This document shows positions 19,127 to 49,743 of a stretch of 64,000 bases of DNA, in pieces. Position 1 is the stretch's first letter. Each line of letters opens with the position of its first letter. Made by a program: the position numbers and the translations under genes. The stretch comes from Acidimicrobiia bacterium (GTDB taxonomy: Bacteria; Actinomycetota; Acidimicrobiia; Spongiisociales; ZC4RG35): positions 233,741 through 297,740 of the forward strand of contig OY762464.1 in the NCBI GenBank assembly GCA_963665765.1, written 5' to 3'. The notes beneath the pieces were generated by a model. That model was given only the letters and a program-made list of their open reading frames with translations, made no database searches and had not been told where the DNA came from.

Positions 19127-19329
19127 TCCCCTCCCTTCTGTACGTAGTTCTTTACGAACTCCTCGGCGTTCTCCTCCAGCACACTGTCGATCTCATCCAA
19201 CAGTTCGTCTATCTTCTGGGAATCCATCTGCGCCATCCCCAACCCCGATAGATCACTCTCCGAGGGCGGCGGTCCCTCCTTGGATCGGCGACGACGCCTG
19301 TTCCGTTCCTGATCAGCCATTTCTTTCAC
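19123..19329 (-). CDS. pup: prokaryotic ubiquitin-like protein Pup (C-terminal GGE)
   Basis: 68 aa ending ..NYVQKGGE, with a disordered N-terminus and a helix-forming C-terminus. Confidence 0.95.
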   Translation of the reverse strand: MKEMADQERNRRRRRSKEGPPPSESDLSGLGMAQMDSQKIDELLDEIDSVLEENAEEFVKNYVQKGGE

Positions 19330-20797
19330 CCAACTCGCGGATCAAACCGGCTGGATCGGATACCCGCTCCATCAGAGGGCCGGCGTTGATGCGGCTTCCT
19401 TTCAAAGGTTCCATCATAGACACCTTGACAAGGTCTCCCGGATTCCTTTCGAACAAAAGCGAATCCCAATTGGCGGCCACCAAAGAGGTCCCGAACCGGG
19501 AGACGCACGAGCCTCTGAACCAGGCTCTGGTGTCCTCCGGTGGACACCGCTCGGCCTCCTCGATCTCGGCGTCGGTGAACAATCGCCGCATCGCCCCGGT
19601 TTCCACCAATCGGTGGTAGATGCTGCGGGCCGGTTCCACATCGTGATACTGCAAGGCCAGGGCGGCCAACCGGGGATGCGACCAACTCATACTCTGCCGG
19701 GCCCGGTAGGCCTCCAACAGTCCGAGCTTGGCGGTCCAATCCAGCCGATCGGCAGTCAACTTGGGATCGCGTTCCAAATCCACCAACACCCCCTCCCATT
19801 CGTCCAGAACCACCTGCCAGACCTCTTCTTCCATCCGATGACGGGCGTATTCGGAAAGCCACTCCAGATACTGGAACTGCAGTTGGAGAGCGGTAGCGGC
19901 GCCGCCCCCCTCCATTTCCACCGGCTCGGAGAGGCTGAGATCGTGGCTGATCTGCCAACAGGCCTTCACCGGATCGGCCAACTCCAAGGCCGAAGGCAAA
20001 GCCTGGTCTTCGAAGGCATGCAGAAACAGGGCAGTGACGCCCAGTTTCAGAAAAATCTGAACTTCGGAGAGATTTGCGTCACCGATAATCACATGCAGTC
20101 GGCGGTAGCGGGTGGGATCCCCATGCGGTTCGTCGCGGGTGTTGACGATCGGTCTCCGCAGGGTGGTCTCCAATCCCACCACCTCTTCGAAGAAATCCGC
20201 CCGCTGGGTGATCTGGTAGGAACAGGGGGGACGGTAGTTTTCGGCGCCCACCTTGCCCGAACCGGTGAAGATCTGGCGGCTCACCAAAAAGGTAGGGAGA
20301 TAGCGGACAACCCTCCCGAAAGGCGTTAGACGGGAAAGAAGATAGTTTTCATGGGCGCCGTAGCTGCTGCTTTTGCCGTCGCTGTTGTTTTTGTAGAGAC
20401 GGATTTGCTGGTTGGGAGGGAGGGTCTTCTGAACCTGGCGAGCCGCCTTGGCCATCACCAATTCTCCCGCCTTGTCATAAAGCGCCCCTGCCCGGGGATC
20501 GACGCATTCGGGACTGGAGTATTCGGGATGGGAATGATCCACGTACAGACGGGCGCCGTTGGTCAACACCGAGTTGATCAGGGTCGATTCGGGTTCGGGC
20601 ATCCCGAAGTTCTCGTGGCCAAAGCCCCGCGAGTCGCTGCCCGGGGACTCGTGCTCATAGGACCATTGCACTCTCACCGGACCACCGGGGTAACCGTCTA
20701 TCACCGCCGCCGCGGCCAGAGCCTGGTGCTGATGGGCGCGATTGCGGATGATCACCCCGAATTCGGTTTCAGTGCCCAGCACCTTGGGGATGGCCAT
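19313..20797 (-). CDS. dop: Pup deamidase/depupylase Dop
   Basis: PafA/Dop fold (LGTETEFGV..). Called Dop rather than PafA from its position between arc and pup. Start placed at MAIPKVLGTE; the ORF track's 555-aa form carries 61 extra N-terminal residues. Confidence 0.85.
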   Translation of the reverse strand: MAIPKVLGTETEFGVIIRNRAHQHQALAAAAVIDGYPGGPVRVQWSYEHESPGSDSRGFGHENFGMPEPESTLINSVLTNGARLYVDHSHPEYSSPECVDPRAGALYDKAGELVMAKAARQVQKTLPPNQQIRLYKNNSDGKSSSYGAHENYLLSRLTPFGRVVRYLPTFLVSRQIFTGSGKVGAENYRPPCSYQITQRADFFEEVVGLETTLRRPIVNTRDEPHGDPTRYRRLHVIIGDANLSEVQIFLKLGVTALFLHAFEDQALPSALELADPVKACWQISHDLSLSEPVEMEGGGAATALQLQFQYLEWLSEYARHRMEEEVWQVVLDEWEGVLVDLERDPKLTADRLDWTAKLGLLEAYRARQSMSWSHPRLAALALQYHDVEPARSIYHRLVETGAMRRLFTDAEIEEAERCPPEDTRAWFRGSCVSRFGTSLVAANWDSLLFERNPGDLVKVSMMEPLKGSRINAGPLMERVSDPAGLIRELGERNG

Positions 20798-20819
20798 CAG
20801 CAGCCGGTGCGGGGAAAGA

Positions 20820-22532
20820 TCAGAGGTACTGTCCGGTGGTGACCGTTTCCACCATCCGACCGTCGCCATCCTCCAACAACGTGCGTACGTAAACGATCCG
20901 CTCGCCCTTTTTGCCGGAGATCTTCGCCCAGTCATCGGGGTTGGTGGTGTTGGGAAGGTCCTCGTGCTCGCGGAACTCACGACGGACCGCCGCCAGCAGA
21001 TCGTGGGCGCCGATGCCGGGATCTCCCCCGCTCAGATAGCGTTTGATGGCGCTTTTTTTGGAACGGCGGACGATGTTTTCGATCATGGCACCGCTGGAAA
21101 AGTCCTTGAAGAACAACACCTCTCGGTCGCCATTGGCATAGGTGACCTCCAGAAAGCGATTCTCTTTCTTTTCCGAATACATGGCGTCCACCACGTCCGT
21201 GATCAAATCCTCCAACATTCCGTCGGTGTCTCCCCCGGCTTTCGTCAGGCCGTCCGGGCTGTAGGGAAGATCCGAAGTCAAATAGATACGAAATATCTCC
21301 CGGGCGGCGACTTCGTTGGGACGGGAGATCTTGATTTTGACGTCAAGGCGGCCGGGCCGGAGGATCGCCGGATCTATCAGGTCCTCCCGATTGGATGCTC
21401 CGATAACGATCACGTTCCGCAAAGATTCCACACCGTCCAGCTCGGAAAGCAACTGGGGAACGATGGTCGACTCCACATCAGAGGATATTCCGGTGCCCCT
21501 GGTGCGGAACAGCGAGTCCATCTCGTCGAAGAACACGATCACCGGCACTCCTTCGGACGCCTTCTCCCTGGCCCGCTGAAAGATCAACCGAATCTGTCGT
21601 TCGGTTTCCCCCACCCACTTGCTAAGCAGTTCCGGACCCTTGATGTTGAGGAAATAGGAGTGGGTGTCCGGTTGGCCGGTCCGCTCGGCGACCGCCACGG
21701 CGAGACTGTTGGCCACCGCCTTGGCGATCAGGGTCTTGCCGCAACCGGGAGGACCATAGAGCAGTATGCCCTGGGGAGGCTTGAGGTTGTACCGGGAGAA
21801 AAGTTCACGGTGCACATAGGGAAGCTCCACTGCGTCACGGATCATTTCGATCTGGGAATGTAGACCCCCCACCTGCGTGTAGTTGACATCGGGAACTTCC
21901 TCGAGGATTAGTTCCTCCACCTCGGGGCGCGCCAGTCTCTCCAGGGCCATGGCGCCTTGCACATCCACCCGCACGTTGTCTCCCATGCGCAACGGCTCGT
22001 CCTGCAGCGGACCGGCGATCCACACCACCCGGTTCTCGTCTCCGTGAGCCTGCACCAAAAGTCGGTCCTGTCCCAGGCGGTCTCTCACCACCATCACTTC
22101 TCCCGTGCCGTCGAAATCGCGGACATCGATGATGGAGTAGGCCTCGTTCAACAGGACCTGCTGTCCGGGCTGGAGCTTTTTGACCTCAATGGAAGGCTGT
22201 GCGTCCACCCGGAGCTTGCGAGTACCGGTCACCAGATCCACTTTTCCGTCGGTGTGCACTCCCAACACCGTCCCGAAGGCGTTGGGGGGGCTGGTCAGCC
22301 GTTCGATCTCGGTCCGGAGCATGGCCAGTTGTTCGCGGGCTTCGGTCAGGAGGGCGCCCAGTTTCTCGTTCTGGCCGCGCACTCGATCGAGTTGCCGCCG
22401 AGTCTGGTCCATCTGGTGCTGGAGAGCGTCGATCCGACGGGGAGTCTGCGAACGCAACCGGGCCAGCTCACCCTCCAATTGAGCGATAACTGCGGAGGGA
22501 TCGGAGTAGTCGGGTCGGCGCTGTTCGAACAT
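20820..22532 (-). CDS. arc: proteasome-associated AAA ATPase ARC/Mpa
   Basis: N-terminal coiled coil, AAA module [16 protein letters not shown], and C-terminal ..TGQYL. Start placed at [11 protein letters not shown] (Met 102 of the track ORF). Confidence 0.9.
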
Positions 22533-22652
22533 CTTCCTGCTTCGAGGATTTTCCGGCGTGCGGATGAGTATACGAAATGTGTTTGTATTCTGGGATACCA
22601 AGCTTGTTATCATTGAACTCAACCATTCCAAGGACGGGAGACCACAAGGGCT

Positions 22653-22898
22653 ATGAAGGTTTGGATTGATCAAGACCTCTGCACCGGCGATGGGCTGTGC
22701 GAAGAGATTGCCCCGGATGTTTTCGTTCTCCTGGATGACGGCCTGGCCTACGTTCGGGACGGCGAGACCATCTATGCGGAAGCCGAGGGACACATACAAG
22801 GCGCCGGTGGGCTCGCAATCGTTCCCGCCGGCCAAGAAGACATCACCATCGAGTCTGCCGAAGAGTGCCCCGGGGAGTGCATCTTCATAGAGCCCTGA
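22653..22898 (+). CDS. small [3Fe-4S]/[4Fe-4S] ferredoxin
   Basis: 81 aa with the [26 protein letters not shown] cysteine pattern of single-cluster actinobacterial ferredoxins. Confidence 0.85.
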
Positions 22899-33180: not shown

Positions 33181-35133
33181 GCCCGAGTTTGGCGGGTCAA
33201 GGGGGTTTGGTGGGATGTGATTGGTGTGTTGACCTGGGGTTTTGTGTTGTGAGGGGTTGCTTCTGCACGATATTGTAGGGGCGACAGTTGGTTGGTGTTA
33301 GGGAGGTGGTGCTGGTAGTATTGTGGGGTATGTTCGTTAAGACGACCCGCCGTAGGAGGGGCGACAAGGTTTACGAGTACTTGTCGTTGGTGGAAACGGT
33401 TCGCAAGGGGTCGAAGATCGGCCATCGGACCCTGTTGCGCCTGGGAGAAGTCACCGCTTTACGCCAATCGGGACAGTTGGGACGGATCATCGCCGCGTTG
33501 GAACGTCACCTGCACAAAGAACGCGTCGACGTTGACAGCTTGGCCGCCGAGGGAGCACCCGCGGTAGGAGCAGTAGCCGCAGCGGCCGCGGTATGGAAAC
33601 AACTGGATCTCGGGGGGTTCTTCACAAAAGTAGGCGCGGAACGCCGTGCTGACGTTTTGGAACATGCAGTGTTCGCGATGGTGGCGAACCGGCTGGTAGC
33701 CCCGTGTTCGAAACGTCGTCTGCCCGAATGGACAGAACATGACGTGGTGATGCCCCAAGGCTGGTCAGCGCCGTCGTTGGACCAGTACTACCGGGCCTTG
33801 GACGCCGTCGCCGACACCAAGAACGAGACCGAGGAGCATTTGTATCGGCGGTTGTGCAACCTGACCAACCTGAACCTTCGGCTGGTGTGCTATGACCTGA
33901 CATCCACCTATTTTGAGGGTTCGACCCAAAAGTCGGAAGCGTTTCCGTCGCGGGTGTTCGGGTATTCGCGGGATCATCGCCCGGACAGGCCCCAGATCGT
34001 GATCGGTCTGTTGTGCACCACAGACGGGATCCCGATAGCCCATCATGTGTTCTCGGGGAACACCAACGACGCCTCCACCCTACCCGGGGTGTTGGAAGAC
34101 CTGGCGGGACGGTTCGCGGTGGGCAGGATCTGTGTGGTTTCCGACCGGGGGCTCATATCAGCATCTAACCTGGAAACGGTCACCCAAGCGGGGTTTGATC
34201 ACCTGCTGGCCACCAGACTCCGCCGCGATCGGATCACCGCCCAAGCGCTTTCGGCTATTGACCAGGACACTGTGTGGGTGCAGCTACCCGAACACGGTTC
34301 CAGGGCCGCTGATATCACCCTCGAAGACGGGACCCGCACGGTGGTGGTCGAGTCCGACGCTCGTGCCCGTCGGGACACACAACGCACCGCCGAACTTATC
34401 GCCGCTGCCGAAACGCAGTTGTTGGCGTTGGAACATCGTGTCCGTTCGGGGAGACTGAAAGACCCCGCCAAGATCGGGAGAGCCGCCCAACGCATCCTCG
34501 GCACCGGGCGGGTCGGGCGACTGTTCGACCTCGAGATCGGACCAGGTCGCTTTCTCTACCACTACAACGAGGACAACCAGGCATATGAGAAGCTGTTGGC
34601 GGGTCGCTATGTGCTGACCACCAGTCTCACATCCGCACAAGCCGACACCGCCGAAGTGGTGGCCTGCTATCGCCAACTGCAAACCGTCGAAACCCGCTTT
34701 CGGGTGCTCAAAGACTTCCTACGACTACGGCCGGTGCGGCACTGGACCGAGAAACGAGTCCGCGGTCACGTAGCGGTCTGTGTGTACGCCGCTTTGATGG
34801 AAACGCTCATCACCCAGGCTCTCACCGCAGCCGATGTCCGCGATCCCGACCTCGAACACCAACACCTCACCGCCGCACGGGCCCTCCAACAACTCAACCG
34901 CGTCCGCCGCGTGGAACTGACCACCAACAACCACCAGATCACCATAACCACCCGACGCACCCCCCTACAAACACGGGCACTCGCCGCCATCGGAGTCGAC
35001 ACCCGCACCTGGGACAAAGCCACCATCACCTAACCACCACACCGGCTCAAACACCGAATGTAGTGGAAACACCTTCTTCGCGTATGCCCCCTGACCTGGT
35101 AAAACACAAAACCACCCGCCAAACTCGGGTCCG
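33181..35133. mobile_element. IS1634-family insertion sequence (about 1.95 kb), apparently intact, inserted into the IS3 orfA
   Basis: Terminal inverted repeat (g)cccgagtttggcgggt at the left end, reverse-complemented as acccgccaaactcgggtc at about 35116-35133. Flanking IS3 OrfA reading frames resume on both sides. Confidence 0.75.
33330..35033 (+). CDS. IS1634-family transposase
   Basis: 567 aa uninterrupted with characteristic blocks (..YEYLSLVE..RLVCYDLTSTYFEG..VVSDRGL..). Start at MFVKTTRRRRGDKVYEY. Confidence 0.85.
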   Translation: MFVKTTRRRRGDKVYEYLSLVETVRKGSKIGHRTLLRLGEVTALRQSGQLGRIIAALERHLHKERVDVDSLAAEGAPAVGAVAAAAAVWKQLDLGGFFTKVGAERRADVLEHAVFAMVANRLVAPCSKRRLPEWTEHDVVMPQGWSAPSLDQYYRALDAVADTKNETEEHLYRRLCNLTNLNLRLVCYDLTSTYFEGSTQKSEAFPSRVFGYSRDHRPDRPQIVIGLLCTTDGIPIAHHVFSGNTNDASTLPGVLEDLAGRFAVGRICVVSDRGLISASNLETVTQAGFDHLLATRLRRDRITAQALSAIDQDTVWVQLPEHGSRAADITLEDGTRTVVVESDARARRDTQRTAELIAAAETQLLALEHRVRSGRLKDPAKIGRAAQRILGTGRVGRLFDLEIGPGRFLYHYNEDNQAYEKLLAGRYVLTTSLTSAQADTAEVVACYRQLQTVETRFRVLKDFLRLRPVRHWTEKRVRGHVAVCVYAALMETLITQALTAADVRDPDLEHQHLTAARALQQLNRVRRVELTTNNHQITITTRRTPLQTRALAAIGVDTRTWDKATIT

Positions 35134-45495: not shown

Positions 45496-45841
45496 CCGGT
45501 TGGACCTTCCCACCCGTTATAGAGAGCAGGTTGAAGCCATCTTGCGCGAGCATGTCCCCGACGTGGAAGTGTGGGCCTACGGCAGCCGAGTCAACGGCAT
45601 GAACCATGAGGCCAGCGATCTGGACCTGGTGCTGAGAGGCCCCGACCTGGCGCCGATCCCTTTAGATCAACTGGTTGAACTGACCGAAGCATTTGAAAAA
45701 TCCAACATTCCAATCCTGGTCGAAGCTCGCGATTGGACGAGACTCCCGGAAAGCTTCCACAAGGAAATCGAACGAGACTATGTGGTACTCTTGGGCTGGC
45801 AAAAATTCGATCAGGCCTATTGCCCTCCAAGACTTTGCTAA
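45488..45841 (+). CDS. minimal nucleotidyltransferase (MNT) partner of the HEPN protein
   Basis: GSRVNG..SDLDLVL (GS-x9-DxD) nucleotidyltransferase motif. Its start overlaps the HEPN stop. Confidence 0.8.
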   Translation: MIDRLDLPTRYREQVEAILREHVPDVEVWAYGSRVNGMNHEASDLDLVLRGPDLAPIPLDQLVELTEAFEKSNIPILVEARDWTRLPESFHKEIERDYVVLLGWQKFDQAYCPPRLC

Positions 45842-46242
45842 TGTCATCCCGAGCTCCAATCGGATATTTGGCAATCACAGAAGTCCCCGTGGCAATCAAT
45901 CAGGGAATCATCGCAATCCGCTGTGATAAAAGGACTGGCCCTGTTTACACATTGCACTGGATTGAAGCACATCTTGACGTCATAAAGGCCTGGGCAAGTG
46001 GCACTACCTTTCTGGAAATAAGCAAGTCTTCTTTTCGAACCTGGCCCTTTCTAACATCAACGCAGGAAATTCATGCCGCCTACGAGTCCATTACAGCCCT
46101 TCTGCATAGGCAAATGGCAAGAACCACAAGACAATCCAGCGCGCTTTCCACCCTGCTACCCAAACTTTTATCAGGAAAATTGCGGGTGGGTCGATCCAAA
46201 GGCCTGACGCATCGAGGACAGTGGAACAGATGCCACAGCTAA
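45733..46242 (+). pseudogene. hsdS: type I R-M specificity subunit HsdS fragment (end of one TRD plus the conserved C-terminal region)
   Basis: ..SRAPIGYLAITEVPVAINQGIIAIRCDK..EAHLDVIKAWASGTTFLEISKSSFRTWPFL..LLPKLLSGKLRV. Its 5' part overlaps the MNT gene. Confidence 0.75.
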
Positions 46243-47405
46243 AGAAGACCCTGACCTTGCAGCCCGCCGTCTTGAGATGGGCGCGGGAGCGGGCTGGTTT
46301 AGAGCCCGATGAGCTTGCGGCGCGTCTCAAGGCCCAAACCCGAGACATTGAAGAATGGGAACGCTCGGGCAGGATTAGCTTCGCCAGAGCTGAAGCCTTG
46401 GCCAAAAAAACATATACGCCCGTTGGTTTTCTCTATCTCGACGAGCCGCCCATTGAGAGTCTCCCCATCGCCGATTTTCGCACTCGCGCGGGAACTACAC
46501 CGCCAAGACCCAGTCCCAACCTGTTGGACACCGTCTACCTCATGCAACTGCGGCAGGCTTGGATGAGAGAGGAGCTGATTGGTCAGAAAAGTGCTCCCTT
46601 GCCCTTCGTTGGAGCCTTCGGCTTGGATGCGCCTCCCTCGGAAGTTGCCGCCGCAATGAACGACGCCTTGCAACTGAAAGGAGGTTGGGCAGCGGCAAGA
46701 GGAACTTGGACCGACGCATTACGAACCTTTAGAGACCATATTGCTGCAGCAGGGGTATTGCTCTTCTTCAATGGCGTGGTGGGGAACAATTCCCACCGCA
46801 AGTTGCAAGCTGATGAATTCCAAGGGTTCGCAATGGTGGATGACTATGCACCGCTTATCTTTATCAACAACGCCGATTACAAGACCGCTCAGATGTTTAC
46901 ACTGGCCCATGAGCTGGTTCACCTTTTCGTCAGCGAATCCGGGGTCTCCAAATTGGAGGCCCTGAGTCCATCGGACCATGTCGTTGAGCAAGCGTGCAAT
47001 AGCATCGCAGCCGAATTCCTTGTGCCGAGTCGGCAGTTGCGCCAAACCTGGATCACGGCGAGGCATTCAGACGATCCCTTTCAGCATCTTGCCAGATACT
47101 TCAAGGTCAGCACGGTTGTAGCTGCTCGGCGAGTTCTTGATGCCAACCTAATATCACGAAAGGCCTTCTTCGAATACTACGAAGAAAACAAAGCCAAACA
47201 TTGGGGCGGGACACAGTCGACAGGCAGCAGTCGGGGCGGAAATTTTTGGAATAACCAACGCTGGCGGGTGGGCACTCGATTCGCCACGGCCGTCAGTCGT
47301 GCGGTGATGGAAGGGCGCCTGTCTTACACCGAAGGATACACCCTGACCGGATTGCGGGGCGATACCTTCGCGAACATACCGGCAAAAATGGGCATTGCCC
47401 TGTGA
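46221..47405 (+). CDS. XRE-family HTH fused to an ImmA/IrrE (DUF955) zinc metallopeptidase
   Basis: N-terminal HTH (..LRWARERAGLEPDELAARL..) and the HEXXH motif LAHELVHLF. Confidence 0.8.
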   Translation: MEQMPQLKKTLTLQPAVLRWARERAGLEPDELAARLKAQTRDIEEWERSGRISFARAEALAKKTYTPVGFLYLDEPPIESLPIADFRTRAGTTPPRPSPNLLDTVYLMQLRQAWMREELIGQKSAPLPFVGAFGLDAPPSEVAAAMNDALQLKGGWAAARGTWTDALRTFRDHIAAAGVLLFFNGVVGNNSHRKLQADEFQGFAMVDDYAPLIFINNADYKTAQMFTLAHELVHLFVSESGVSKLEALSPSDHVVEQACNSIAAEFLVPSRQLRQTWITARHSDDPFQHLARYFKVSTVVAARRVLDANLISRKAFFEYYEENKAKHWGGTQSTGSSRGGNFWNNQRWRVGTRFATAVSRAVMEGRLSYTEGYTLTGLRGDTFANIPAKMGIAL

Positions 47406-47935
47406 CGAGTCGTTCTCTCTCAACGTTGGGCTTGGCTACCAGGTATTTGCTGGACACCAACATTTTTATAGCTGCTTGGCGTGATCACTATCCAATAGAT
47501 CTTTACCCAGGATTCTGGGCCTGTCTTGAGCGCTTCGTTCATGAGAAGAGAATTCTGAGTCTTGATAGGGTCCAAAAGGAGATCGCAGGTCCGAAGGAAC
47601 TTGTCATCTGGCTTCGGCACAACTGGCGCGGCGCGTTTGCCTCTACAAGAGACCCCGATGTGACGGGAGCGTTCTCGAAGATACACGATTGGGTGCAATC
47701 AAACAGCCAGTTCTTGTCTGCGGCCAAGCACGAGTTTGCGAGAAACGCTGATGGGTGGCTTGTGGCATACGCCAAGGTGCATAGCGCCATCTTGGTTACT
47801 AACGAGGTCTACAACGAGGAAGTGCGAAGAAGGGTCCCTCTACCCAACTTGTGCAGAAAGTTTGGCGTTGAGGTTTGCAACACGATTGGAATGCTACGCG
47901 GACTCGGGGTCGCATTCGACCTACGGGTCCTTTGA
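47402..47935 (+). CDS. DUF4411-family PIN-like protein (partner of ImmA/IrrE)
   Basis: N-terminus ..RYLLDTNIFIAAWRDHYP... Start overlaps the upstream stop. Confidence 0.7.
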   Translation: MTSRSLSTLGLATRYLLDTNIFIAAWRDHYPIDLYPGFWACLERFVHEKRILSLDRVQKEIAGPKELVIWLRHNWRGAFASTRDPDVTGAFSKIHDWVQSNSQFLSAAKHEFARNADGWLVAYAKVHSAILVTNEVYNEEVRRRVPLPNLCRKFGVEVCNTIGMLRGLGVAFDLRVL

Positions 47936-48920
47936 TGCCCATGGTCGCAGAGTCCGTGGTGGAATTTGCCGCTGTCGATTGGTTCACAGCCTTGGGGTAC
48001 CAGCACATAGCGGGCTCGGAAATGGTGCCGGGGCCTTCCGGCCGGCGTAAGAAAAGCTATGAGGAAGTGGTGTTGAAGCAGGTCCTGCAAGAACTGCATC
48101 GACCGGCTCAACCCGCATCTCGACCCCGGCGCCCGGTTTGGAAGCTTTCCGAAAGATCACCCGGCCGGAGGGGGCAAGCACGGTGGCTCGGAACCGAGAC
48201 TTTTCATCCTTCCAAGAGGTTCGGGCAGTGCTGTCCAAGCCGGCTCCGGGACAATTGCGATCGGACGAGAGGTTGGATTTGGCGGTACGTCAGATAATTT
48301 CCCGAGCCGTGGCACCCGACGGCGTGCTGGACATATTTGCGGCCGCCGGGTTGAAGAAACCGGACATCTCCATCTTGTCGGACGAGTTCCTGGCCGAAGT
48401 GCGGGCCATGCCTCACCGCAACCTGGCCGTGGAACTACTCCAAAAGCTTCTCAAAGGTGAGGTCGCCACCCGCCACCGCAAGAACCTGGTGCAGGCGCGT
48501 TCTTTTTCCGAAATGCTCGAACGGTCTCTACGGCGCTATCAGAACCGCTCAATCGAGGCTGCGCAGGTCATCGAAGAATTGATCCAGTTGGCCAAAGAGA
48601 TGCGAGAAGCGAACGCTCGGGGCGAAAAACTGGGCCTCTCCGAAGATGAACTGGCCTTCTACGACGCCCTGGGAACCAACGACAGCGCCGTGAAGATAAT
48701 GGGCGATGAGGTGCTAAGCGCCATCGCCCGGGAACTGGTGGAGACAGTCCGCAACAATGTCACCATAGACTGGACTCTTCGAGAAAACGTCCGCGCCAAC
48801 CTGCGCCGCCTGGTCAGACGCACCCTGAGAAGGCACGACTATCCCCCCGACAAGCAGGAAAAAGCCACCCGCACCGTCCTCCAACAAGCCGCACTGCTAT
48901 CCGAAACCTGGGCTGCTTGA
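47935..48920 (+). pseudogene. hsdR: type I R-M restriction subunit HsdR remnant: N-terminal about 55 aa joined (with a frameshift) to the C-terminal DUF3387 domain; the helicase/nuclease core is absent
   Basis: [51 protein letters not shown].., then in another frame ..[22 protein letters not shown].. and ..[43 protein letters not shown]... Confidence 0.75.
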
Positions 48921-48970
48921 AATCAGCTCCCTTGTCTCTTGGTACGTTACCTGATGTGTATGATCGGTGT

Positions 48971-49183
48971 ATGGCCCGCACCAACGTAGACATTGACGAT
49001 CGGGCATGCGCCGAGGTCATGCGGCGTTATCAATTCGCCACCAAGCGGGAAACTGGCAACTTCGCTCTGCGAACTCTGGCGACCGAATCCGCTTCGGTTG
49101 ATGAGGCCCGTGCTCTTCGAGGCATAGGATGGGAGGGAGATCTAGGCGCAATGCGCTCTGACCGAACGTCCCGGCTAGTGTGA
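48971..49183 (+). CDS. VapB-family type II antitoxin (DUF2191-like) with no adjacent VapC
   Basis: MARTNVDIDDRACAEVMRRYQF.. N-terminus. About 70 aa. Confidence 0.6.
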   Translation: MARTNVDIDDRACAEVMRRYQFATKRETGNFALRTLATESASVDEARALRGIGWEGDLGAMRSDRTSRLV

Positions 49184-49194
49184 AACGCTGAACC

Positions 49195-49743
49195 ATGGCA
49201 CGCATCAAGGTCATTCCCGACGACTCTTGGGACGACGCACTCGGTGAGCTTTATCCGCGGGTTGTTGATCCGACCTATGGCCGGGTCGACAACATTCTCG
49301 CCGTGCACTCGATTAACCCTCGCGGCATGGCGGCACACCAGGGTCTGTACGAATCGGCCATGGCCGGGACGGCCACGCTCCGCAAGGTCGAGCGGGAGAT
49401 CCTCGCTCTGGTGGTGAGCCTCGAGAACGAATGCCACTATTGAGTTGTCCACCACCGGCGCGGTCTGCGTCGGTTGCTCCACAACGACGACCTCGCCGCG
49501 GCGATTGAACAAGACTGGACAACTGCCGCGCTGTCGCCAAAGCGGGTGGCGATGCTGAATTTTGCGGTCAAACTGACGGTAACGCCGGGCGCGATGAATG
49601 ACGAGGATGTCAATTCCCTACGAACCGCCGGTTTCTCCGATCGTGACATCCTCGACATAGTCGAGGTGGTCGGCTACTATGCATACGCCAATCGGATCGC
49701 CGATGGTCTGGGCATCGACACCGAAACGTGGATCCCCGATTGA
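49195..49743 (+). CDS. AhpD-like / carboxymuconolactone-decarboxylase-family peroxidase-related protein with an in-frame TGA (selenocysteine candidate) at 49441-49443
   Basis: Tracked ORFs 49195..49443 and 49474..49743 are in the same frame and together match one CMD-family protein. The TGA falls on the second Cys of the redox motif: ..ENECHY-[TGA]-VVHH.. corresponds to C-x-x-(C/U)-x-x-x-H. The C-terminal half ..LSPKRVAMLNFAVKLTVTPGAM..DVNSLRTAGFSDRDILDIVEVVGYYAYANRIADGLGI is well conserved. Confidence 0.6.
49455..49473 (+). promoter_or_regulatory. candidate bacterial SECIS hairpin 11 nt downstream of the in-frame UGA
   Basis: ccggcgc-GGUCU-gcgucgg forms a 7-bp stem (one G-U pair) around a GGUCU loop, which is like the fdhF SECIS apical loop. 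The spacing from the UGA is as expected for SelB-dependent recoding. Confidence 0.5.

Follow-up and report, generated by a model that had tools for sequence, protein, structure and literature searches.

The 64,000-nucleotide stretch of contig OY762464.1 that was analysed here and to which we refer as the window (positions 233,741 to 297,740 of the forward strand; Acidimicrobiia bacterium, assembly GCA_963665765.1) very probably carries a selenoprotein gene. Positions 49195 to 49743 form one AhpD-like gene, whose in-frame UGA codon would be decoded as selenocysteine (Sec) under the direction of a selenocysteine insertion sequence (SECIS) hairpin in the coding region directly downstream. The preliminary description of this DNA, which was made from the letters alone, had already favoured Sec recoding over a nonsense mutation. 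Our results support this view by the presence of TGA at the homologous codon in all 140 loci compared, by dN/dS ratios (nonsynonymous over synonymous substitution) on either side of the codon and by a conserved hairpin with covarying base pairs.

A single AhpD-like reading frame with one internal UGA

Two open reading frames (ORFs), 49195..49443 and 49474..49743, lie in one frame and are separated by a single internal stop, the TGA that ends the first of them. The read-through product runs from MARIK...ENECHY through this codon to VVHHRRGLRRL...WIPD and ends at an ordinary TGA terminator (49741-49743), so that the gene has 182 sense codons counting Sec83; its start, MARIKV, agrees with that of the orthologues in the alignment. 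When scored with Cys in place of the internal stop, the protein reaches 136.7 bits on TIGR01926 ('peroxidase-related enzyme'; curated NCBIfam cut-off 81.8), covering profile positions 23-173 of 178, and 39.3 bits against a cut-off of 23 on the Pfam carboxymuconolactone decarboxylase (CMD) family PF02627. Read-through and scores thus bear out the earlier proposal that the two ORFs together make up an AhpD-like or CMD protein. Membership in NF041238 (AhpD_rel_CFYUT) failed, with 37.6 bits against a cut-off of 175 and a match to the C-terminal part only of the 357-position model.

Residues E68, C80, Y82, H86 and H87 are invariant across the protein alignment of homologues, and the spacing of E68, C80, Y82, U83 and H87 is that of the AhpD proton relay, E-x11-C-x-(H/Y)-C-x3-H, which is made up of Glu36/Cys48/Tyr50/Cys51/His55 in PA0269 and of Glu118/Cys130/His132/Cys133/His137 in Mycobacterium tuberculosis AhpD (PMC3141380). 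Relatives of the window protein in the PDB were found with E values from 2.5e-27 down to 1e-3, and in the closest of the solved structures, 3c1l, 2pfx, 6k40, 2oyo and 2prr, a Cys of the CxxC motif is aligned to position 83, the motif reading CYYC or CFYC in 3c1l and 2pfx. Among the homologues, six of closer relationship (P0007-P0012, 54-56% identity) have TGC at the UGA position, as was to be seen from the orthologue alignment that had been proposed as a check, and 17 distant ones read CHYCVPAH there; these Cys-form homologues are single polypeptides. The assignment of the TGA to the second Cys of a C-x-x-C-x-x-x-H motif is thereby confirmed, both by the Cys homologues and by structures 3c1l and 2pfx. 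As far as can be judged from sequence, the window gene has every feature of the AhpD-like CxxU family (TIGR01926). The features discussed here and below are collected in Table 1.

Table 1. Features of the window and of related loci; positions are those of the window unless a locus is named
Feature	Position	Strand	Basis or remark
AhpD-like (TIGR01926 / CMD PF02627) gene, complete, predicted selenoprotein	49195..49743	+	sequence, ORFs, family scores, alignment, dN/dS
UGA predicted to be read as Sec83, at the second-Cys position of CxxC	49441..49443	+	TGA in orthologues, TGC in Cys forms
Proton-relay motif E68-x11-C80-H81-Y82-U83-x3-H87	49396..49455	+	translation, alignment, structures; Glu68 codon 49396-49398, His87 codon 49453-49455
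Predicted bacterial SECIS hairpin	49455..49473	+	5' arm 49455-49461, loop GGUCU 49462-49466, 3' arm 49467-49473
HsdS fragment	45733-46242		part of decayed type I restriction-modification locus
IrrE/M78 peptidase	46221-47405		within decayed restriction-modification locus
DUF4411 protein	47402-47935		paired with IrrE/M78 peptidase
HsdR, C-terminal part only	48138-48920		T1RH-like_C profile positions 86-327
Orphan VapB-type antitoxin ORF	48917-49183		Pfam match to residues 21-56
Pup ligase beside proteasomal ATPase (Mpa/ARC)	19313-22835	-	
DDE transposase gene	33288-35033	+	
Duplicated copies of the AhpD-like gene	L023 (6245, 10247); L050 (2707, 10247); L020/L022 (one contig, ~12 kb apart); L054 (10247, 16833)		copies in related loci

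Conservation of the UGA codon and selection on both sides of it

A protein search gave 561 homologues, and orthologue DNA was collected from one genome per species, which yielded 57 close loci of 62-90% identity, nearly all of them from metagenome-assembled genomes (MAGs) of Acidimicrobiia and many from Ca. Poriferisodalis, Ca. Aldehydirespirator, Ca. Spongiisocius or sponge metagenomes. A further set comprised 80 metagenome loci and three short contigs, with identities down to 45%. TGA is present at the homologous codon in 57 of 57 genome loci and in 83 of 83 metagenome or short-contig loci, that is, in 140 loci at 45-90% identity. Pairwise comparison with the window gene gave a dN/dS ratio of 0.155 for the part before the TGA and of 0.177 for the part after it, at dS of about 1, and the downstream half contains no additional stops. 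The equality of the ratios on both sides argues that the frame is kept in translation of the downstream half, and that selection acts on it as it does on the upstream half.

TGA also serves as an ordinary stop in this DNA: it terminates 13 of the 20 Pfam-confirmed genes of the window, among them the AhpD-like gene itself. The code is thus not reassigned, and recoding of the internal TGA must rely on local context. The window contains 111 pairs of same-frame ORFs that are joined by a TGA, and only the AhpD-like pair has a hairpin of the kind described below at that offset; no other recoded gene was detected in the window by this comparison of TGA-joined pairs.

A hairpin conserved in loop, register and base pairing

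The hairpin, ccggcgc-GGUCU-gcgucgg, begins 11 nt after the TGA and is a perfect helix that forms the local minimum-free-energy fold (-13.6 kcal/mol); an additional A-U pair, 49454/49474, extends it to 8 bp in this window only. The 7-bp stem with a GGUCU loop that had been predicted from the letters therefore folds as described and at the distance described. Its outer pairs, in contrast, are specific to this window, and beyond it conservation is limited to the loop and the inner 5-6 bp, with a core in which 49457-49461 are paired with 49467-49471.

For the comparison of the RNA we used 110 distinct sequences of 48 nt beginning at the UGA. The GGUCU loop is invariant (110 of 110), the register is identical in all of these sequences, and the five inner pairs are formed in 98.9% of the cells of the alignment. 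The pair of columns 18 and 30, which are the third positions of codons 88 and 92, occurs as GC (81 sequences), GU (18), CG (5), AU (4) and UA (1) and is unpaired in one, while the closing pair of columns 21 and 27 is CG in 106 cases, UG in two and UA in one. In covariation score as well as in the variety of pair types, the alignment surpasses all 500 shuffles and all slid registers, the compensatory changes fall at two synonymous sites, and RNAalifold recovered the core independently. A lower SECIS helix was not conserved in these sequences (columns 4-8 with 41-45, 57% paired).

Since the peptide encoded here, HHRRGLRRL, is itself conserved, we examined the synonymous sites. Among the 68 conserved codons with at least four synonyms, codons 88-91 (CGG CGC GGU CUG) have synonymous entropies of 0.21, 0.12, 0 and 0 bits, the gene averaging 1.08 bits, and are four of the five lowest, and the glycine codon in the hairpin is invariantly GGU despite the G+C-rich genome. 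Among the more divergent relatives, L083 (49% identity) encodes the peptide HHSAGLRRL and forms a shifted 6-bp stem, UCGGCG/CGCCGA, with GGUCU at unchanged distance from the UGA and a hairpin z score of -3.5. The most divergent TGA form, L085 (L085:854-901; 45% identity, peptide HHGESLRLE), has another hairpin, GGGGAG-UCU-CUCCGC, which does not contain GGUCU, so that the SECIS sequence is not uniform over the whole family.

Evidence against Sec decoding and the question of the machinery

Several results weigh against decoding of the UGA as Sec. By folding energy the hairpin does not stand out significantly from shuffled sequences (z of -0.3 to -1.9, in a sequence of about 60% G+C), and part of its conservation is due to the HHRRGLRRL peptide, which is also encoded by Cys forms that keep a partial hairpin. 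A search of Rfam at gathering and at permissive thresholds returned chance matches only and no SECIS-type match; bacterial SECIS elements are poorly covered in Rfam. Neither the 64-kb window nor any of 59 related loci gave a tRNA-Sec with ARAGORN, and tblastn with E. coli queries found neither SelA nor SelD and nothing convincing for SelB in the window and 82 loci, the related flanks amounting to about 1.5 Mb. A SelB-like match beside the orthologue L009 proved to be TypA/BipA (896 bits on TIGR01394).

As to the energy, the experimentally established SECIS of E. coli fdhF is instructive. In 5,419 E. coli genomes our query for this element has a match of 47 nt at 100% identity, which is annotated there as selenocysteine-containing formate dehydrogenase H, and in the same shuffle test the element gives a z of only -0.63. 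Folding energy is thus not a useful criterion, since a genuine element scores no better, and the decision rests on the comparative data.

As to the machinery, SelA is accompanied by SelB in the majority of sponge-symbiont bins, and bin76, a sponge Acidimicrobiia bin, has two SelA, one SelB and one SelD (PMC5649159, Table S4 for bin76). In Actinomarina, which also belongs to the Acidimicrobiia, selC, selA and selD together with a divergent selB are present in 84 of 84 complete genomes (bioRxiv 10.64898/2026.04.03.716425). At the level of the lineage these reports support the Sec trait, and the source genome of the window may likewise encode the machinery.

Proposed decoding and function

We propose that the hairpin is bound by SelB carrying Sec-tRNA(Sec) as the ribosome nears the UGA, and that SelB would deliver the Sec-tRNA to this codon in competition with release factor 2. 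Translation would then run on to the ordinary terminator at 49741. Both Sec insertion and SelB binding are put forward here on the strength of the sequence comparisons. The predicted product, an AhpD-like thiol/selenol oxidoreductase, has a C80-x-x-U83 redox centre within the relay constellation Glu68/Cys80/Tyr82/Sec83/His87, in which Sec would replace one of the two catalytic Cys residues of the CxxC motif, and it most likely cycles between a selenol/thiol and a selenenylsulfide state. Its activity probably consists in the reduction of a peroxiredoxin-type partner or in the direct reduction of peroxide.

Alternative explanations

But could the UGA not simply be a nonsense codon? In a pseudogene a Cys codon, TGC or TGT, would have mutated to TGA, the product would end after 82 residues and the hairpin would be a by-product of Arg-rich, GC-rich coding. 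One transversion is enough for such a change, the gene adjoins decayed restriction-modification genes, the energy of the hairpin is unexceptional, and Cys forms, too, have the RRGLRR peptide and a partly similar hairpin. None of this, however, explains why a nonsense mutation should be kept at every one of 140 loci from about 57 species genomes and from metagenomes, nor why purifying selection downstream of it equals that upstream with no further stop having arisen, nor why the freezing of synonymous sites is specific to the hairpin, where compensatory changes also occur. TGA conservation and dN/dS effectively refute the pseudogene reading, to which we attach next to no probability. A split protein has to be considered as well, in which translation would end at the UGA and a second chain would begin at the TTG at 49474 or, in some relatives, at a GTG right after the TGA. 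GTG does follow the TGA in many orthologues, and most entries in the databases cover only one half, of about 100 residues, some of them under the name 'peroxidase-related enzyme'. In the window, however, the codon after the TGA is GTT, and a start at TTG 49474, the first one possible, would remove HHRRGLRRL including the relay residue His87; among the orthologues the codon is GTT, GTC, GTA, GTG, ATC, ACC or CTC, which means that there is no conserved start codon. Moreover, the CxxC/His motif that spans the TGA lies on one helix in solved relatives, and Cys-form homologues are single chains. Two separate genes are therefore a highly improbable explanation.

A third alternative is read-through that requires no selenium, whether by a near-cognate tRNA (Trp or Cys) or another form of suppression, stimulated by the hairpin, or by reassignment of UGA. 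Residues other than Sec can evidently occur at position 83, since two relatives with TGG (L001) and TTA (L002) at this codon have an intact hairpin, and neither the window nor the roughly 1.5 Mb of related flanks gave any Sec machinery. Reassignment, though, is at odds with the use of TGA as the terminator of 13 of 20 Pfam-confirmed window genes, and TGG and TTA each occur in one sequence only, next to sisters that bear TGA. The hairpin, for its part, agrees with the SelB-binding fdhF element in its loop sequence and exactly in the distance from UGA to loop, and the recoded site is the position of a catalytic Cys in a documented family of CxxU selenoproteins. We regard selenium-free read-through as very unlikely, and pseudogene, split protein and selenium-free read-through even in combination as improbable, and we are confident that the region is one AhpD-like gene whose UGA is decoded as Sec.

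Cysteine, tryptophan and leucine forms of the gene

In four loci with TGC at this position (L079:3247, L080:3268, L081:1138 and L082:3265) the HHRRGLRRL peptide and a partly decayed hairpin are kept. The closing pair is lost or the loop altered to GGCCU in three of the four Cys-form genes examined. The neighbours of the Cys forms, ApbE and a SulP/STAS transporter, are unlike those of the Sec forms. Distant Cys homologues do not contain RRGLRR and read CVPAHTGIAK there. In the window protein and its close relatives R88-R-G-L-R-R93 amounts to the translation of the hairpin, CGG-CGC-GGU-CUG-CGY-CGN.

A true TGG (Trp) codon is found at the UGA position in P0001/L001 from a hydrothermal-vent contig (L001:701-703) and a true TTA (Leu) codon in P0002/L002 from MAG GCA_024275815.1 (L002:3247-3249), each with its SECIS-like hairpin still intact; L141, the sister of L002, has TGA together with the same rare U-A variant of the stem. 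These variants may be very recent losses of Sec, or they may be sequencing errors. In a rough neighbour-joining tree, which has no support values, the close Cys forms branch from within the Sec clade; TGG and TTA, each a single variant, are placed beside sisters with TGA. Nesting in the tree, the retained RRGLRR peptide and the decaying hairpin suggest, without being more than suggestive, a secondary loss of Sec that left a fossil SECIS behind.

Taken together, these observations permit a joint reading in which RRGLRR is an imprint of the SECIS on the protein, L079-L082 are Sec-to-Cys revertants with a fossil SECIS, the TGG and TTA forms are still later losses, and the gene is universal and often duplicated in the sponge-symbiotic Poriferisodalaceae and Aldehydirespiratoraceae. 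This reading is tentative, and we would rather suggest than defend it as a whole. If true, selenium dependence would be a trait that these sponge symbionts share consistently and that has so far gone unreported; our search of the literature found no published description of a selenoprotein for Ca. Poriferisodalis, Aldehydirespirator or Spongiisocius.

Several Acidimicrobiia genomes contain two TGA-bearing copies of the gene within 4-12 kb (Table 1), and in L054 the second copy is truncated upstream.

Annotation of the family and significance

Most of the close database homologues are fragments of about 100 residues that match the query over its initial 43-45% or its final 54%, which is the output to be expected from gene callers if the orthologues share a stop at this codon. 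An internal deletion seems to have occurred in the copy P0015 (Ca. Poriferisodalis). Three apparent Trp forms on short contigs, P0004/L084:518, P0013/L083:492 and P0027/L085:854, were rejected as such, being TGA codons that had been read as W, apparently under genetic code 4. In public databases this gene and hundreds of its orthologues are present either as two fragments or as code-4 'Trp' read-throughs, and recognition of the gene as encoding one selenoprotein corrects this record and also flags the host genomes as users of Sec. It further implies a need for selenium and a Sec-based redox enzyme in marine and sponge-associated Acidimicrobiia, where the enzyme would probably serve under peroxide or disulfide stress. 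What is known of Sec decoding or of the protein families that use Sec is left unchanged by our findings.

Genomic context

The region upstream of the AhpD-like gene (45733-48920) is a decayed type I restriction-modification locus, of which a fragment of HsdS and the C-terminal part of HsdR are left; the pair formed by the IrrE/M78 peptidase and the DUF4411 protein looks as if it was inserted into, or is associated with, this broken system. Next comes the VapB-type ORF, whose true start is likely to be the ATG near 48971; 11 nt separate its end from the start codon of the AhpD-like gene, and it is not followed by a gene for a VapC/PIN toxin. On the downstream side lies a peptide-type ABC transporter, encoded on the opposite strand. 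There is no conserved operon partner such as ahpC, and no neighbour family is present in more than 15 of 58 loci. The AhpD-like gene thus appears to stand alone, as its neighbourhood is not conserved among the orthologous loci. Elsewhere the window contains a gene for a DDE transposase as well as a Pup ligase gene beside that of the proteasomal ATPase Mpa/ARC, and the latter arrangement fits an actinobacterial origin of the window.

Comparison with known systems

The hairpin had been likened to the SECIS of E. coli fdhF in the preliminary description, and this likeness holds in part. In both cases the hairpin lies within the coding sequence directly 3' of the UGA, the loop nucleotides GGUC are identical, and GGUCU starts exactly 18 nt after the UGA, at nucleotide 22 counted from its U. 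Loop closure differs, as in fdhF an A-U pair closes a loop of 4 nt, GGUC, whereas the window has a 5-nt GGUCU loop closed by C-G, and the unpaired U in the 5' arm of fdhF is without counterpart in the window stem. Further differences are the G+C-richness of the window stem, its lower helix, which is not conserved, and the gene family concerned. The bulged U is a contact to SelB found in fdhF specifically, and bacterial SECIS elements in general do not require it. Conservation here is confined to the upper hairpin, and for fdhF, too, the upper stem-loop, some 11 nt from the UGA, is the minimal functional element.

On the protein side, AhpD of M. tuberculosis, PA0269 (2o4d), Mlr4105 (3c1l), 2pfx and 6k40 share with the window protein the helical CMD/AhpD family, as judged by sequence, and the spacing of the relay. 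They differ from it in that Sec stands for the second Cys in the window protein, and the window gene has no adjacent ahpC. NF041238, which was described as 'hypothetical protein 1' in the Sargasso Sea study, is likewise a CMD-related CxxU selenoprotein, but the window ORF is no member of it.

The closest known system is the family of AhpD-like CxxU proteins itself. In 2005 a set of 27 Sargasso Sea sequences in COG2128 was described as a new family of selenoproteins (PMC1088965), its 'AhpD-like 1' group ranks with 299 sequences among the most abundant selenoproteins of the Global Ocean Sampling (GOS) data (PMC2398784), and a 2026 review lists it as 'AhpD-like protein, TIGR01926, CxxU' (PMC13188914). 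The window gene shares with this family the HMM family, the position of Sec at the second Cys, the widespread Cys homologues, the SECIS inside the coding region directly downstream of the UGA and the marine origin. We conclude that it is in all probability a new and usually mis-annotated member of a documented selenoprotein family and employs the canonical bacterial mechanism. Nothing essential sets it apart from the family as known; what distinguishes the copy in the window and its closest relatives is that they come from sponge-associated or marine Acidimicrobiia.

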